64,000 nt of DNA from an uncultured bacterium (GCA_965552055.1 CBEVQO010000004.1:128001-192000), one strand, 5' to 3'. Counted from the stretch's first letter, positions 7,359 through 17,674 are shown. Translations and numbers: made by a program. The notes: generated from the sequence alone by a model not told the origin.

Positions 7359-8111
7359 CTAATATTTTTTGAAAAAATTTATTGCGTTATCCACGAATTT
7401 TTCTGCTTCTTCTATTAAATTTTTTATTTTTTCTTTGGATATCTCTTTTTTAACTTTATTCCAGTTTTTTCTGTATTTAAACAACTCTTCTATTATTTCG
7501 CTATTTAGTTGCGGAAAGATTTCTTTTATCTTTTGTGGTATTTCGCTTGTTTTCACGAAAATGTTTTTAAAAGCAAGCATATCCTGACAGCAATTTTTAA
7601 TTCTCCTTATGCAGAGCCGTAATTTTTCATAATTATATTCTTCTAATTTTGTGAACTGTTCTTTAAAAAGTTTCAGCCATTTTATCACATCCTCTGGTTG
7701 CAATTTGATTTCTGGTATAAGTTTTCTAAAATCCCATCCGTATATTATTTTTCCTGTATTTTTTGTCAGATGTAAAGAAACTTTGTCGAGTGTGAATCCG
7801 AACTCTCCGTGAGCAGAATTTATAATCACAGGTAGTTCTTTATATTTAATCCATTCTTTCAATTCTTCTTTTGTAATGAGTATCCATCCTACATCGCATT
7901 GTGGATATTTTTCTCTTTCATTTAACATAAATTTGGTTATCTCTTTTAAATTTTCAAAATTTTTTGCAATTATGAAAATATCTGCGTCACTCCATCCTTC
8001 TATCCAGTCACCTGTTGCCAGACTGCCCTGCAAAAGCAAAGATAAAAGTCCTTTAACATCAGGAGCTTTTTCACGCAAATCCTTTATGAGATTTTCAAAC
8101 GAATCTTTCAT
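7359..8111 (-). CDS. Nucleotidyltransferase (Pol-beta superfamily) with helical C-terminal domain
   Basis: GSLATGD...WSDADI matches the GS-x-DxD signature. Confidence 0.75.
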   Translation of the reverse strand: MKDSFENLIKDLREKAPDVKGLLSLLLQGSLATGDWIEGWSDADIFIIAKNFENLKEITKFMLNEREKYPQCDVGWILITKEELKEWIKYKELPVIINSAHGEFGFTLDKVSLHLTKNTGKIIYGWDFRKLIPEIKLQPEDVIKWLKLFKEQFTKLEEYNYEKLRLCIRRIKNCCQDMLAFKNIFVKTSEIPQKIKEIFPQLNSEIIEELFKYRKNWNKVKKEISKEKIKNLIEEAEKFVDNAINFFKKY

Positions 8112-11347: not shown

Positions 11348-12414
11348 CTAAATGCTTTATGTAATCTTTTTAATGCTTCTAATTTTTCTCTATTTCCTAT
11401 TTTTGCGGATTTTATTGCCGTTTCCAATATCGTAATTGTTTTCTCATAAGTTTCTCTATCAACAGGATATGGGTGGCCGTCTTTTCCACCGTGTGCGAAG
11501 CTAAATCGTGCGGGGTCACGAAAACTCACAGGTTCGCCATAAATTAGTTCGGATGTTAAAGCAAGCGCTCTAATCGTTTTGGGACCTACTCCTTCAATCG
11601 CTAATAACTCTTCATAATTTTCGGGACTTCTCAAATAAGTTTTCAATAATGTTTTTGATAATCTTTTAGGGTCAATATCTTTGATTAGCATCTGATGTCT
11701 TGGTGGCAATTTCAGGACTTCAATTTTTTTAAATTCTTTTAAAGCTTTTGCCGGATTTTTTGCGAGTTCTACTATAACTTCCTGAGCCCCTTTACTTTCT
11801 TTTGCTACGGTATTTAATACATTTTTTTCAAATTTTTGTGTGGCTATTGCTGAATGAGGTTCCACAACAAAAGATTTAAGGTCATCACTTAACCAGTGGT
11901 ATCTTCTTGCATACAAATTTTGAGTATTCATCCCTTGCTGGATTACTGTCCATTTGCCATCATCCGTGAAAATTATTGTGTGATGATATAATTCATAGCC
12001 ATCCTGAAGCGCAACATTATCGACTTTTGCTGACATTCTGCTTGCATAAATTAATTTTTCGGGTGATATTTTTAAATACTTTTCCGTTTTTAAAATGTCT
12101 TCGGGTGTTTTTAAGGCAGTTTTGCCTTTACCTCCACCCATGAAGATTCCGATATCTTTTCCTATGTCTTTTAATGCTTCTTTTATCGCACCGCAAACAG
12201 TTGTTGTAAGTCCTGATGAATGCCAGTCAAATCCCAGCAAGTTTCCAAGTGCTTGAAACCAGTATGGTGATGATAATCTCCTTATAAATTCGTATTTTCC
12301 AAATTCATCTGTTAATGCGATTATAATAGCTCTGCTTAACTTTACCATATTTTCAAATAGCCATCTCGGTGCTTTCCCTGTATGTAACGGCAGATATGCT
12401 ACACCGCTACGCAT
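11344..12414 (-). CDS. DUF763 family protein
   Basis: LPLHTGKAPRWL, GFDWHSSG, FSFAHGGKDGHPYPVD. Confidence 0.9.
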   Translation of the reverse strand: MRSGVAYLPLHTGKAPRWLFENMVKLSRAIIIALTDEFGKYEFIRRLSSPYWFQALGNLLGFDWHSSGLTTTVCGAIKEALKDIGKDIGIFMGGGKGKTALKTPEDILKTEKYLKISPEKLIYASRMSAKVDNVALQDGYELYHHTIIFTDDGKWTVIQQGMNTQNLYARRYHWLSDDLKSFVVEPHSAIATQKFEKNVLNTVAKESKGAQEVIVELAKNPAKALKEFKKIEVLKLPPRHQMLIKDIDPKRLSKTLLKTYLRSPENYEELLAIEGVGPKTIRALALTSELIYGEPVSFRDPARFSFAHGGKDGHPYPVDRETYEKTITILETAIKSAKIGNREKLEALKRLHKAFR

Positions 12415-13766
12415 TATATTACTTCGGCAAATTTCTTTTGCTCAATAAATGATGTATGAATGTTACCTTTTACGAAATCTTCGTCTTCCATTATTTTTCT
12501 GTGAAATGGGATTGTTGTTTTTATTCCTTCTATTATGAATTCATCGAGTGCTCTTTTCATTCTTTCAATTGCTTCTATTCTATCTTTTCCATGCACTATT
12601 AATTTTGCAATTAAAGAGTCGTAATGTGGTGGGATTGTATAGCCCTGATAGACATGGGTATCTACTCTTACACCGCCTCCTCCTGGCAGATATAACATCG
12701 TTATTTTACCGGGACATGGTTGAAAATTTTTATCAGGGTCTTCTGCATTTATTCTGCATTCAATAGCGTGTCCTTCTATTTTTACATCTTCCTGACGGAA
12801 AGAAAGAGGTTCTCCTGATGCTATTTTCAACTGCTCTTTTACAATATCAATTCCTGTTACAAATTCGGTTACAGGGTGTTCAACCTGAATCCTTGTATTC
12901 ATTTCGATAAAATAAAAATTTCCATCTTGGTCCATTAAAAACTCTACAGTACCTGCGCTAAAATATCCGATAGCTTGTGCTGCTTTTACAGCATATTCGC
13001 CTATTTTTTTGCGTAAGTCAGGTGTTACAATGGGAGAAGGCGCTTCTTCTATTAATTTTTGATGTTTCCTCTGGATTGAGCATTCTCTTTCACCAAGATG
13101 AACAACATTACCGTATTCGTCGCCTAATATTTGCACTTCTATATGTCTTGGTTTAATCAAATATTTTTCAATATAAATTCTCCCATCACCGAATGCAGAT
13201 TTAGCCTCCTGTTGTGCTACATTGAAAAATTTTTTAAGTTCGTCTTTATTGCGAGCGATTCTCATTCCTTTTCCTCCTCCGCCTGCTGCTGCTTTTATCA
13301 TCACCGGGAAACCTGCACTTTCTGCTATTTCCATTGCCTTATCAATATCTGTGACGGATTCATGACTACCGGGGATTACGGGCACACCTGCTTCTCTTAC
13401 CACTTCTTTTGCCATTATTTTATCGCCCATTAGTTTTATTGCATCTGCTGAAGGTCCTATAAATTTAAATCCATTTTCTTCGCATATTTGTGCAAATGTA
13501 GGGTTTTCTGCAAGAAAGCCATATCCGGGATGAATTGCATCTGCTCCTGTTACTTCGGCTGCACTTATTATTGCAGGTATATTTAAGTAACTTTTTGCAG
13601 GCGGCGGTGGACCGATACAAACAGCGTAATCCGCCAATCTAACATGCATCGAATCCCTATCTGCTTCTGAAAAAATAGCCACTGTTTCTATACCAAGTTC
13701 TTTACATGCACGAATAATACGGATAGCGATTTCTCCTCTGTTTGCAATTAATACTCTTTTTATCAT
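12414..13766 (-). CDS. accC: Acetyl-CoA carboxylase biotin carboxylase
   Basis: [39 protein letters not shown]. Confidence 0.97.
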
Positions 13767-13767
13767 A

Positions 13768-14283
13768 TTACATTGGTTCTACAAGGAAAAGTTCCTGTCC
13801 ATATTCTACCGGTTGTTCGTTTTCTACCAGTATTTTTACGATTTTGCCTTTTACACCGGCAGGTATTTCGTTAAATACTTTCATTGCCTCGATTATACAT
13901 ACGATTGTATCTTCTTTTACTATGTCACCTACCTCTACATAGGGTTTTGCACCTGGTGCTGGTGCTCTGTAAAATGTTCCCACCATAGGAGAGCGTATTG
14001 CTACAAGTTCTTTTGCTTCTTTTTTCTCTTCTTTAACTTCTTTTACTTCGGGTTTTTCTTCTTTAATTTCTTCTTTGATTTCTTCTTTCTTTTCGACTTT
14101 TACAGGTTGGGCTTGCACCTGTGGTATTTGCTGTATCTGTGGCGTTATGATTTGAGGTATCGGTGTGCTTTCTTTCTTTTTACTAACTCTTATAGTTCTG
14201 AACCATGTTTTTATTTCGATTTCATCCACATCGCTTTTGCTCAATATTTCTGTTAATTTTTTTATTAATTCATCTAACTTCAT
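13768..14283 (-). CDS. accB: Biotin carboxyl carrier protein
   Basis: [15 protein letters not shown] biotinylation motif. Confidence 0.95.
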
Positions 14284-14582
14284 TCTGGTTTGAATCCTAT
14301 TATTTTTTTCTCGTGTGTTTCCTCTATTTTAATTTCTCCGAATCTTTCTTCGTATTTTTTGATATTTTCTTCGAGTGTTTTCAACAATCTTTTTGCGTGT
14401 GCCGGTGCCAGTATTATTCTTGCGTATATTTTTGTTTTTTTGAGTCCTGGCATTATTCTTGTGAAATCGATTACGAATTCCGTTGGTGAGTGGCTTACGA
14501 TTGCAAAGTTTGAGTATATTCCTTCGCCTTCTTTTTCCGGCACTTCAATTTGTATTTCTTGCATTTGCGGTCTTTCTTCCAT
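14280..14582 (-). CDS. DUF3467 family protein
   Basis: [20 protein letters not shown]...[20 protein letters not shown] before ATG 14582. Confidence 0.85.
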
Positions 14583-15018
14583 TTTTAACTCCTTTTTTCT
14601 TATTGAAAAGTTTATCGAAAGTGTCAATTATGAATTTGGCAGATTTAAAACCTTCTTTTATTACATTAACACTTTTACCCCCTCTGTAATATCCAAGTAT
14701 ATGGAGAACTTCATAAGCTGTATTAAAATGTGCTTTTAATTTGCCGTTATGCGGTATTTTGTTGAGCCATTGCATATATTCTCTGTAATCCGCCGGTAAT
14801 TCCTCTGGCTTTTTCCCCTTTTTTAAGATGTATGCATCTATTGCGAGAAGGACTGCGAGATATCCGATGGCACATGCCTCTGATACCCTTTTGCTATCGG
14901 CATATCTTATACCATATTCAATTGGTGTCTCCTTTAAAATATCCTTTGCATTTTTGAAATATCTTTTTGCTTCTCTTATTGCTTCTTCAGGACTTTTAGG
15001 TCTTTCTCTTTTTTCCAT
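14545..15018 (-). CDS. DUF5618/HEPN-like helical protein, copy F
   Basis: [13 protein letters not shown]...[23 protein letters not shown]...LHILGYYRGG; SD AGGAG. Family name is from motif recall. Confidence 0.7.
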   Translation of the reverse strand: MEKRERPKSPEEAIREAKRYFKNAKDILKETPIEYGIRYADSKRVSEACAIGYLAVLLAIDAYILKKGKKPEELPADYREYMQWLNKIPHNGKLKAHFNTAYEVLHILGYYRGGKSVNVIKEGFKSAKFIIDTFDKLFNKKKGVKNGRKTANARNTN

Positions 15019-15451
15019 ATTCTTTCTCCTTTTCATTAAAAAGTTTGTCAAATGTGTCAATAATTATTTTTGCTGCTTTGAAACCTGCTTTTATGATATC
15101 GACACTCGTTCCTCCTCTATAATATCCCAGGATGTGTAAACTTTCATAAACCGTATTAAGATGTGCTTTTAATTTGCCGTTATGCGGGATTTTGTTGAGC
15201 CATTGCATATATTCTCTGTAATCCGCCGGTAATTCCTCTGGCTTTTTCCCCTTTTTTAAGATGTATGCATCTATTGCGAGAAGGACTGCGAGATATCCGA
15301 TGGCACATGCCTCTGATACCCTTTTGCTATCGGCATATCTTATACCATATTCAATTGGTGTCTCCTTTAAAATATCCTTTGCATTTTTGAAATATCTTTT
15401 TGCTTCTCTTATTGCTTCTTCAGGACTTTTAGGTCTTTCTCTTTTTTCCAT
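14996..15451 (-). CDS. DUF5618/HEPN-like protein, copy E
   Basis: Same N-terminal part as F; variable segment HLNTVYESLHILGYYRGGTSVDIIKAG. Confidence 0.7.
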   Translation of the reverse strand: MEKRERPKSPEEAIREAKRYFKNAKDILKETPIEYGIRYADSKRVSEACAIGYLAVLLAIDAYILKKGKKPEELPADYREYMQWLNKIPHNGKLKAHLNTVYESLHILGYYRGGTSVDIIKAGFKAAKIIIDTFDKLFNEKEKEYGKKRKT

Positions 15452-15884
15452 ATTCTTTCTCCTTTTCATTAAAAAGTTTGTCAAATGTATCAATAATTAT
15501 TTTTGCTGCTTTGAAACCTGATTTTATGATATCGACACTCGTTCCTCCTCTGTAATATCCCAGGATGTGTAAACTTTCATAAACCGTATTAAAATGTGCT
15601 TTTAATTTGCCGTTATGCGGTATTTTGTTGAGCCATTGCATATATTCTCTGTAATCCGCCGGTAATTCCTCTGGCTTTTTCCCCTTTTTTAAGATGTATG
15701 CATCTATTGCGAGAAGGACTGCGAGATATCCGATGGCACATGCCTCTGATACCCTTTTGCTATCGGCATATCTTATACCATATTCAATTGGTGTCTCCTT
15801 TAAAATATCCTTTGCATTTTTGAAATATCTTTTTGCTTCTCTTATTGCTTCTTCAGGACTTTTAGGTCTTTCTCTTTTTTCCAT
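15429..15884 (-). CDS. DUF5618/HEPN-like protein, copy D
   Basis: Variable segment HFNTVYESLHILGYYRGGTSVDIIKSG. Confidence 0.7.
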   Translation of the reverse strand: MEKRERPKSPEEAIREAKRYFKNAKDILKETPIEYGIRYADSKRVSEACAIGYLAVLLAIDAYILKKGKKPEELPADYREYMQWLNKIPHNGKLKAHFNTVYESLHILGYYRGGTSVDIIKSGFKAAKIIIDTFDKLFNEKEKEYGKKRKT

Positions 15885-16317
15885 ATTCTTTCTCCTTTTC
15901 ATTAAAAAGTTTGTCAAATGTATCAATAATTACCTTTACTGCTTTGAAGCCCCCTTTTATCATATCAACATTTGTCCCGCCTCTGTAATATCCGAGGATA
16001 TGCAGGTTCTCGTAAGCCGTGTTTAAGCACGCTTTTAGTTTGCCATTGTGCGGAATTTTACCAATTTCTTTCATGTATTCCGAAAATTTTGTTGGCAAAT
16101 CTCCTGTTTCTTTACCTTTTTTAAGCAGATAAGCATCTATTGCCAGAAGTGCTGCAAGATAACCGATAGCACAAGCTTCTGATACCTTTTTGCTGTCAAT
16201 ATATCTTTCGTATTCAACGGGTATTTCTTTTAAAATATTTTTGGCGTTTTTAAAGTATCTTTTGGCTTCAGAGATTGCTTCTTCAGGACTTTTGGGTCTT
16301 TCTCTTATTTTTTCCAC
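15862..16317 (-). CDS. DUF5618/HEPN-like protein, copy C (divergent 5' part)
   Basis: GTG start with SD AGGAGG; N-terminal part diverged; 3' part matches copy A. Confidence 0.7.
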   Translation of the reverse strand: MEKIRERPKSPEEAISEAKRYFKNAKNILKEIPVEYERYIDSKKVSEACAIGYLAALLAIDAYLLKKGKETGDLPTKFSEYMKEIGKIPHNGKLKACLNTAYENLHILGYYRGGTNVDMIKGGFKAVKVIIDTFDKLFNEKEKEYGKKRKT

Positions 16318-16753
16318 TGCTTGCCTCCTTTTTCTTATTGAAAAGTTTATCGAAGGTGTCAATTATGAATTTGGCAGATTTAAAACCTTCTTTTATCATC
16401 TGGACACCCCTTCCGCCTCTATAATATCCGAATACATGTAAATTTTCATAGGCTGTATTAAAATGTGCTTTTAATTTGCCGTTATGCGGTATTTTGTTGA
16501 GCCATTGCATATATTCTCTGTAATCCGCCGGTAATTCCTCTGGCTTTTTCCCCTTTTTTAAGATGTATGCATCTATTGCGAGAAGGACTGCGAGATATCC
16601 GATGGCACATGCCTCTGATACCCTTTTGCTATCGGCATATCTTATACCATATTCAATTGGTGTCTCCTTTAAAATATCCTTTGCATTTTTGAAATATCTT
16701 TTTGCTTCTCTTATTGCTTCTTCAGGACTTTTAGGTCTTTCTCTTTTTTCCAT
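16283..16753 (-). CDS. DUF5618/HEPN-like protein, copy B
   Basis: Variable segment [27 protein letters not shown]. Confidence 0.7.
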   Translation of the reverse strand: MEKRERPKSPEEAIREAKRYFKNAKDILKETPIEYGIRYADSKRVSEACAIGYLAVLLAIDAYILKKGKKPEELPADYREYMQWLNKIPHNGKLKAHFNTAYENLHVFGYYRGGRGVQMIKEGFKSAKFIIDTFDKLFNKKKEASSGKNKRKTQKS

Positions 16754-17183
16754 ATTCTTTCTCCTTTTCATTAAAAAGTTTGTCAAATGTATCAATAATT
16801 ACCTTTACTGCTTTGAAGCCCCCTTTTATCATATCAACATTTGTCCCGCCTCTGTAATATCCGAACACATGCAGGTTTTCATAAGCCGTATTAAAATAAG
16901 CCTTTAATTTGCCGTTATGCGGGATTTTGTTGAGCCATTGCATATATTCTCTGTAATCCGCCGGTAATTCCTCTGGCTTTTTCCCCTTTTTTAAGATGTA
17001 TGCATCTATTGCGAGAAGGACTGCGAGATATCCGATGGCACATGCCTCTGATACCCTTTTGCTATCGGCATATCTTATACCATATTCAATTGGTGTCTCC
17101 TTTAAAATATCTTTTGCATTTTTGAAATATCTTTTTGCTTCTCTTATTGCATCTTCAGGACTTTTGGGTCTTTCTCTTATCAT
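16731..17183 (-). CDS. DUF5618/HEPN-like protein, copy A
   Basis: ATGA overlap with the upstream gene; variable segment [27 protein letters not shown]. Confidence 0.7.
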
Positions 17184-17674
17184 CCCTGTTTATAACCTAT
17201 TTTTCTCAAAAATTCTTTTCGGCATTTTATGTCTTCTTCTTTTTCAAAGCCAAGAGGTGAGAATCCATCCACCACACCGAGCACACCTCTACCCTGTTCT
17301 GTTTCAGCGATTATCACTTCACATGGGTTTGCAGTGGCACAGAATATCCTGCATACCTCCTGCACATTCTTTATTCGGTTCAAAACATTAATCGGATAAG
17401 CATTTTTTAAAAATATGATAAATATGTGACCCGCCCCTATGTTCATTGCATTTTTCTTAGCAAGTTCAATCATCTCTTCATCGTTACCTGTGTATCTTAT
17501 GAGACGGGGACCGGATGACTCACAAAAAGCCAGACCAAACTTTATCCCGGGAAAAGAAGTTATAAGAGCTTCATAAAGGTCTTCCACTGTTTTTATGAAA
17601 TGAGACTGTCCCAAAATAAAATTCACTTCTTCGGGCTTTTCTATTTTTACTTTTAAAATTCTAACATCTGCCAT
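17180..17674 (-). CDS. Adenosine-specific kinase family protein (DUF355)
   Basis: [43 protein letters not shown]. Confidence 0.9.

Follow-up and report, generated by a model that had tools for sequence, protein, structure and literature searches.

Of six neighboring genes at positions 14545-17183 of the window (the whole stretch of 64,000 nucleotides from an uncultured bacterium that was analyzed), five are nearly identical over their first two-thirds and diverge around a conserved histidine. This pattern raises the question of whether the genes form a repertoire, in which a constant scaffold presents selected variants as the original prediction had it, or a set of near-equivalent copies whose shared part is overwritten by gene conversion.

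Layout, surroundings, and protein family of the array

All six open reading frames lie on the minus strand and are intact, as first described, and their computed start-to-start spacing (430, 436, 433, 433, and 433 bases) agrees with the head-to-tail period of 430-436 bp initially read from the DNA. Each copy overlaps its neighbor by 23-35 bases. Copy A (16731..17183; 150 aa; DUF5618 E 1e-26) comes first, and its start overlaps the stop of the upstream PF04008 gene (17180..17674, minus strand; adenosine-specific kinase family, DUF355; E 1.5e-80) in the letters ATGA. It is followed by copies B (16283..16753; 156 aa; E 2.5e-27), C (15862..16317; 151 aa, GTG start; E 1.6e-26), D (15429..15884; 151 aa; E 1.8e-28), E (14996..15451; 151 aa; E 1.3e-27), and F (14545..15018; 157 aa; E 8.3e-29), the last of which reads 38 bases into the DUF3467 gene. 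The protein tails past DKLF are read-through into the ribosome-binding region of the next gene, and the predicted model falls below pLDDT 50 there. A promoter scan returned 26 matches (18.3 ± 4.2 expected), and the terminator-like matches repeat a single coding motif as it appears on the non-coding strand. Relatives of the array were absent from 25 candidate viral stretches, and none of the matches listed for the CRISPR stretches at C1:244-247k and C1:379-383.5k was to the array, those of the second stretch all being to another repeat array.

The array is followed by DUF3467 (14280..14582), accB (13768-14283; over the TIGR00531 cut-off), and accC (12414-13766; over the TIGR00514 cut-off), all on the minus strand, which form a class-conserved unit with DUF3467 as its first gene. 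Since accB comes next after DUF3467 in 18 of 19 same-class loci, in relatives without DUF5618, the array precedes this conserved unit and sits upstream of it, not inside an accBC operon as had been proposed. A special tie to accBC is likewise not borne out: 10 of the 16 clusters of this genome are tightly operon-embedded, compared with a background of 42% (796 of 1899 ORFs; p 0.08), so that the accBC position is not special. The junction between DUF355 and DUF3467, at which copy number was to be compared among related genomes, had no counterpart in relatives, where none of 29 loci (about 3.3 kb each) has a DUF5618 or PF04008 match around DUF3467. The starts of DUF3467 and of each copy have AGAAAGACC in common, a possible seed for the first duplication. 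In the lysine- and glutamate-rich linker of accB (window 14016-14073), one run carries a 12-base deletion.

The six copies match DUF5618 (PF18498) with 93-101 bits, over the gathering cut-off of 33 bits, and NCBIfam gave no match for the two copies tried. Their only clear PDB relative is 3MFN (sequence E 3e-14). The predicted model of copy B, built on an alignment of 11, is a helical bundle (pLDDT 88.5) with the four helices of the HEPN fold, and Foldseek returned 3mfn first (E 9e-7, rmsd 2.2), followed by the HEPN/PaREP1 chains 1ufb, 1wol, 2hsb, and 2q00 (probability 1.00, E 0.08-0.15, TM 0.54-0.59); taken overall, the HEPN chains after 3mfn reach probabilities of 0.97-1.00 but weak E values of 0.07-0.2. 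Together with Atlas assignments of 0.95 for DUF5618 and 0.91 for PaREP1, these results confirm the original family call. The best match to PaREP1/8 (PF05942) is 18.5 bits, below the cut-off of 24.4, and the copies are best placed, by sequence, as a sister family of PaREP1/8 and not as members.

To describe conservation, we used a profile search with 562 representatives at E ≤ 0.001, from the best 150 of which the 124 proteins of 110-210 aa were kept. His106 is present in all six copies and in 108 of the 124 family members (about 90%). Also kept in all six are K43 (93% of the family), N23 (90%), D41 (85%), and R19 (79%), as well as the strongly conserved Y102, Y110, and Y111. The Rx4-6H motif is absent from all six copies, which have Asn at the Arg position, and occurs in 5 of the 108 His-bearing members. 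A homodimer prediction gave a median of 0.40 against a mark of 0.42. With their predicted fold and conserved residues, the copies are likely RNases or RNA binders; the same two lines suggest RNase activity, a reading that the missing Rx4-6H motif would weaken.

The nearest MNT match (PF01909) lies 6.7 kb from the array, and no such match was found within 6 kb at any of 15 clusters. This nearest match is at the front of a 250-aa ORF (window 7359-8111) with a helical back half, possibly a fused MNT-HEPN protein. Elsewhere, proteins P0041, P0032, P0048, and P0057 carry DUF5618 in other settings: fused as a double, in two or three repeats that follow a start resembling a signal peptide, or behind a FlgD-Ig domain; the repeated forms among them are without the His.

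The two parts of each gene, within the array and between strains

Up to HNGKLKA, identity among copies A, B, D, E, and F is 98-100% (the alpha type); past this point it falls to 72-82%, with D and E excepted at 97%. Across the 411 columns compared in these five copies, polymorphic sites number 7 in the first 280 and 46 in the last 131 (p 6e-19 by Fisher's test, with the boundary picked after looking at the data), and none lies at offsets 66-253 in the middle of alpha. The alpha segment of B spans 16465..16744, where it is homogenized here and 5.8% different in another strain; those of the other copies span 16898-17177, 15596-15875, 15163-15442, and 14730-15009 (all minus strand). The 3' segment of B (16318..16464, minus strand), which comprises the His106 helix, the GYYRG loop, and the last helix, is copy-specific and has a strain difference of about 1%.

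We distinguish the 3' parts as types x (copy A), y (B), z (D), and w (F). Copy E is a near-duplicate of D with 5 differences in the unit, in line with the slight difference first noted between them. Copy C has an unconverted 5' type, which is one codon shorter than alpha and 71-72% identical to it, and an x-type 3' part in common with A. The variable-segment motifs had been quoted correctly for all six copies. The statement that this part is unlike in every copy is correct for the types of A, B, D, and F but too broad as a whole, since the last ~100 bases of C and A are without a difference and the last ~60 bases are common to B and F. Compared with the paralogue at C1:431k, alpha is 76% identical, slightly nearer than alpha is to C (72%); the extra codon of alpha is also found in this paralogue, and a segment of that length occurs in 23 of 113 family members. 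Import of the 3' segments from dispersed paralogues was considered and is not supported, as their mutual identity (66-82%) exceeds their identity to most paralogues (53-73%).

The metagenome contig L021 (97.2% identity over 1177 bases) is colinear with the window over B, C, D, and the start of E; it is the one other strain for which DNA spanning more than one copy was available, and, like L023, it came from a pattern search in which 3 of 463 matches were confirmed. Differences between the window and L021 amount to 25 of 428 positions in alpha, 4 of 291 in the 3' parts, and 4 of 433 in copy C (p 0.003 and 4e-5). Both B and D of L021 carry five substitutions (offsets 143, 146, 152, 216, and 227) that none of the five alpha copies here has, which marks concerted evolution. 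Comparison of B with D gives 9 unlike alpha sites out of 139 in L021 and 0 of 139 here; the near-identical front of the five copies is therefore real in this array, but its perfect identity is peculiar to this assembly. In addition, copy A of L023 is alpha except for a C-like patch that includes the codon gap of C (of its 16 differences, 12 are those of C), and this patch recurs in protein P0003 of another assembly. The proteins of other assemblies, known as proteins only, have starts, 3' types, and tails in other combinations, which points to changes in copy order and number.

Since the alpha differences exceed those of the 3' parts and include changes shared between copies, the scaffold appears to be overwritten by segmental gene conversion, and the cassettes are not hypervariable. 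The picture given by the original prediction is thus inverted: the "constant" 5' part changes between strains, and the "variable" 3' parts are stable.

The same conclusion emerges from substitution ratios. Between different 3' types, pN is 0.09-0.14 and pS 0.37-1.08 (saturated and uncorrected). The resulting pN/pS is 0.11-0.26 over all 15 pairs, compared with 0.18-0.19 for C versus the alpha 5' part, and no difference was found in any of the five pairs tested (p 0.48-1). Changes at the 14 variable residues are for the most part conservative, and these residues occupy positions that vary throughout the family (entropy 2.99 vs 2.15, p 0.002). Given these ratios and sites, the 3' parts are best read as ordinary, old paralogue divergence under purifying selection, not hypervariation. 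Positive selection in the studied array was rejected on these values, which resemble those of the unconverted 5' part of C. The idea of a diversifying cassette is not supported, while that of a homogenized scaffold with old, retained variants fits both the strain data and pN/pS. Targets of diversity-generating retroelements carry adenine-specific, mostly non-synonymous variation; here, unlike in such targets, changes occur at all four bases and are mostly synonymous.

Altogether, we favor, with moderate confidence, a partner-less array of HEPN-fold DUF5618 genes in which the 5' two-thirds are overwritten by segmental conversion, the divergence of the 3' His-helix part is old, and the copies are near-redundant. 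According to this model, the copies would first have become about 25-28% different from end to end, as C would still show, and one 5' type (alpha, nearest the C1 contig paralogue, with which it shares the one-codon insertion) would have spread in patches, with copy number and order altered by unequal crossing-over. As their overlaps suggest, the genes would be transcribed together with the host operon and coupled to it in translation. Their product would be a PaREP1-like, HEPN-type RNase that acts without metal, in a redundant stress or conflict gene family, and the copies of the studied array are probably near-equivalent in activity.

Other arrays of the genome and competing explanations

Three PaREP1-type arrays lie inside housekeeping operons at C2:89129-90619 (four copies; L093), C5:102871-104054 (three copies; L092), and C8:2787-4298 (four copies; L091). 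With near-identical copies dropped, unlike copies in these arrays differ by 2-10% of amino acids in the N-halves and by 25-44% in the His halves, whereas dispersed paralogues differ about evenly (40-56% and 49-73%, respectively). The N-half pN/pS is 0.06-0.09 versus 0.29-0.50 for the His half, and the His-half pN is 0.20-0.22 versus 0.02; of 10 pairs, which are not independent of one another, 5 reach p<0.05 by Fisher's test. In other-strain proteins of these arrays, the His-half types are kept or newly mixed. This recurring pattern of uniform N-halves and divergent His halves is the strongest reason to suspect that the His half is under selection, and the three arrays, with an apparent selection signal stronger than that of the studied array, are better test cases. 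It also weighs against the favored model, since chance conversion does not predict a direction repeated in three other arrays; so does the retention of 3' types across strains.

The foremost competing explanation is a selected specificity repertoire, in which the N-halves are interchangeable and free to convert, specificity for substrate or partner resides in the His-helix halves, and selection keeps these distinct, possibly with mixing in hetero-oligomers. We consider it less probable than the favored model. Like polarity in all four HEPN-type arrays with three or more copies argues for it, although 4 of 4 amounts to p 0.06 by a sign test, and so do the elevated His-half ratios of the three other arrays, the persistence of His-half types across other strains despite altered N-halves and copy order, the position of both the invariant His and the GYY motif inside the 3' segment, and the double and triple fused DUF5618 proteins (P0041, P0032). 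However, the amino-acid changes in the studied array are few, conservative, and no richer than in the 5' part of C, and pN/pS is never at 1. Moreover, the polarity is reversed in A/C and, in other taxa, in L037 a/c and L029, and none is seen in the two-copy arrays C5:116k and C2:432k. A broader proposal, which we put forward only tentatively, concerns the genome as a whole, with 14 DUF5618 and 16 PaREP1 matches over the cut-off, or 30 genes. Many of these roughly 30 partner-less HEPN genes may constitute tandem operon libraries with an N-half standardized by recombination and selected His halves, yielding combinatorial RNase homo- or heterodimers with different targets.

The genome contains further repeats of other kinds. 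Three tandem Uma2 (PF05685) genes at C2:170643-172378 (L094) have homogenized ends and a divergent center (about codons 37-135). Arrays from a 14-member family, which we take from their motifs to be coiled-coil and PD-(D/E)XK-looking proteins, are found at C2:372982-375127, C3:257104-258615, C10:15-1435, and C13:6733-7856, several of them at contig ends. Tandem pairs of small proteins at C8:10077-10837, C9:59601-60373, and C1:367243-368117 belong to two families with 13 and 11 members genome-wide and are presumably retropepsin-like (DTG/DSG motif); together with PaREP1 and nucleases, they are reminiscent, in a bacterium, of the archaeal paREP suite. At C10:62540-63630, one 106-aa gene lies between two 96% identical PaREP1 genes. 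A dispersed repeat of ~180 bp has at least 20 copies on many contigs (e.g., C3:24066-24246 and C4:110151-110342) and is absent from the array.

The array itself is real, as every junction type is present in independent data: L021, L023, which has the upstream junction, and contigs of runs X1-X4 (three studies), which cover the remaining types. Runs X4 and X5 each have a contig that crosses from a unit to its neighbor. The mis-assembly first considered is thereby countered, with no single contig of runs X1-X5 spanning the whole array. The runs with matches are mostly hydrothermal-vent and sediment metagenomes, and all contigs of the best-matching one (X1) differ from the window at 16631, so that the reads behind this assembly were probably in none of the runs compared. 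The presence of D and E on one chromosome and the letter-perfect alpha are known from this assembly alone. A partial assembly effect, in which 5' parts a few per cent apart were written as one consensus and D and E are perhaps strain alleles placed in tandem, is improbable in our estimation. Writing a consensus could also give the polymorphism-free middle of alpha; other strains have several alpha alleles, the L021 copy at the D position is a mix of D and E letters, and the array is unspanned in the five runs. Against this stand the independent junctions, the contigs that cross between units, and the B/D identity in L021 (93% in the 5' part versus about 77% in the 3' part), which means that the polarity is no artifact.

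Poly-immunity loci string together immunity genes from different families and are tied to polymorphic toxins; the array, with one family only and housekeeping neighbors, does not fit this description. The poly-antitoxin or immunity role originally suggested, with each copy neutralizing another toxin, would suit arrayed small helical proteins and a missing catalytic Arg that could mean a non-enzymatic binder, but it is very unlikely, as no toxin gene lies beside the array, PADLOC gave no meaningful match, catalytic-type residues are conserved across the family, and the HEPN protein of HepT/MntA is itself the toxin in the accessible portion of the source (PMC7641770).

Comparison with known systems

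The array is a real, intact example of a known array-forming kind of gene with a half-gene mosaic: neither a report of half-gene homogenization of such arrays nor a paper with the term DUF5618 was found in the literature searched, which leaves out most subscription papers. It clearly illustrates the concerted evolution of half-genes as it proceeds from strain to strain. In addition, its natural swaps, proteins identical for 96 residues and unlike only around the conserved His, offer a clean test of activity and specificity. If the copies are equivalent, the locus is an ordinary paralogue array.

Within DUF5618 (PF18498; PDB 3MFN, Dfer_2879 of Dyadobacter fermentans), the six copies are members with the same predicted fold. 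Elsewhere, tandem copies occur at 11 of 37 loci of other genomes (a split gene, L057, dropped; two loci being close kin and many contigs short) in arrays of 2-4, and, among 60 relatives (same order at the closest, many incomplete), 2 have DUF5618 over the cut-off, with one gene each. Here, by contrast, the genome has 14 such genes and the largest DUF5618 array seen.

In the accessible parts of the sources, PaREP1/8 proteins keep the His and have lost the Arg, with other basic residues possibly substituting, and form tandem repeats (PMC3710099); their MNT partner is absent and their function is left open (PMC2701414, PMC3632139), as it has been for MNT-free PaREP1-like HEPN proteins since they were first noted (PMC3632139). 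The same excerpts describe expansion in hot-habitat genomes (PMC3710099, PMC2701414, PMC3632139) and paREP regions that are repetitive, variable, and hard to assemble (PMC3558965). Like PaREP1/PaREP8 HEPN-T proteins (PF05942; PDB 2Q00), the six copies keep the His without the Arg, have no MNT neighbor, and are in tandem. Unlike them, they are below the Pfam cut-off, bacterial, and without RHH fusion, and half-gene homogenization goes unmentioned for PaREP1/8 in the portions of the cited papers that were available. The resemblance to HepT/MntA (type VII) consists of the HEPN fold and a conserved His with a Tyr close behind; the array differs in having no adjacent MNT and no Rx4H, whereas HEPN-MNT pairs occur elsewhere in the genome.

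The mosaic itself may be compared with domain movement in type I restriction-modification specificity genes (Furuta et al. 2011, PMC3077401), where, as far as the accessible text goes, variable segments between conserved repeats reappear elsewhere and unit number is altered by recombination, as may hold for the array. The segments there lie within a single gene and are recognition domains, unrelated to each other, whose specificity is proven, whereas those of the array belong to whole tandem genes, are 72-82% identical, and have a hypothetical specificity. If the combinatorial RNase set were true, it would represent a specificity system of the cassette type whose units are entire genes in tandem.
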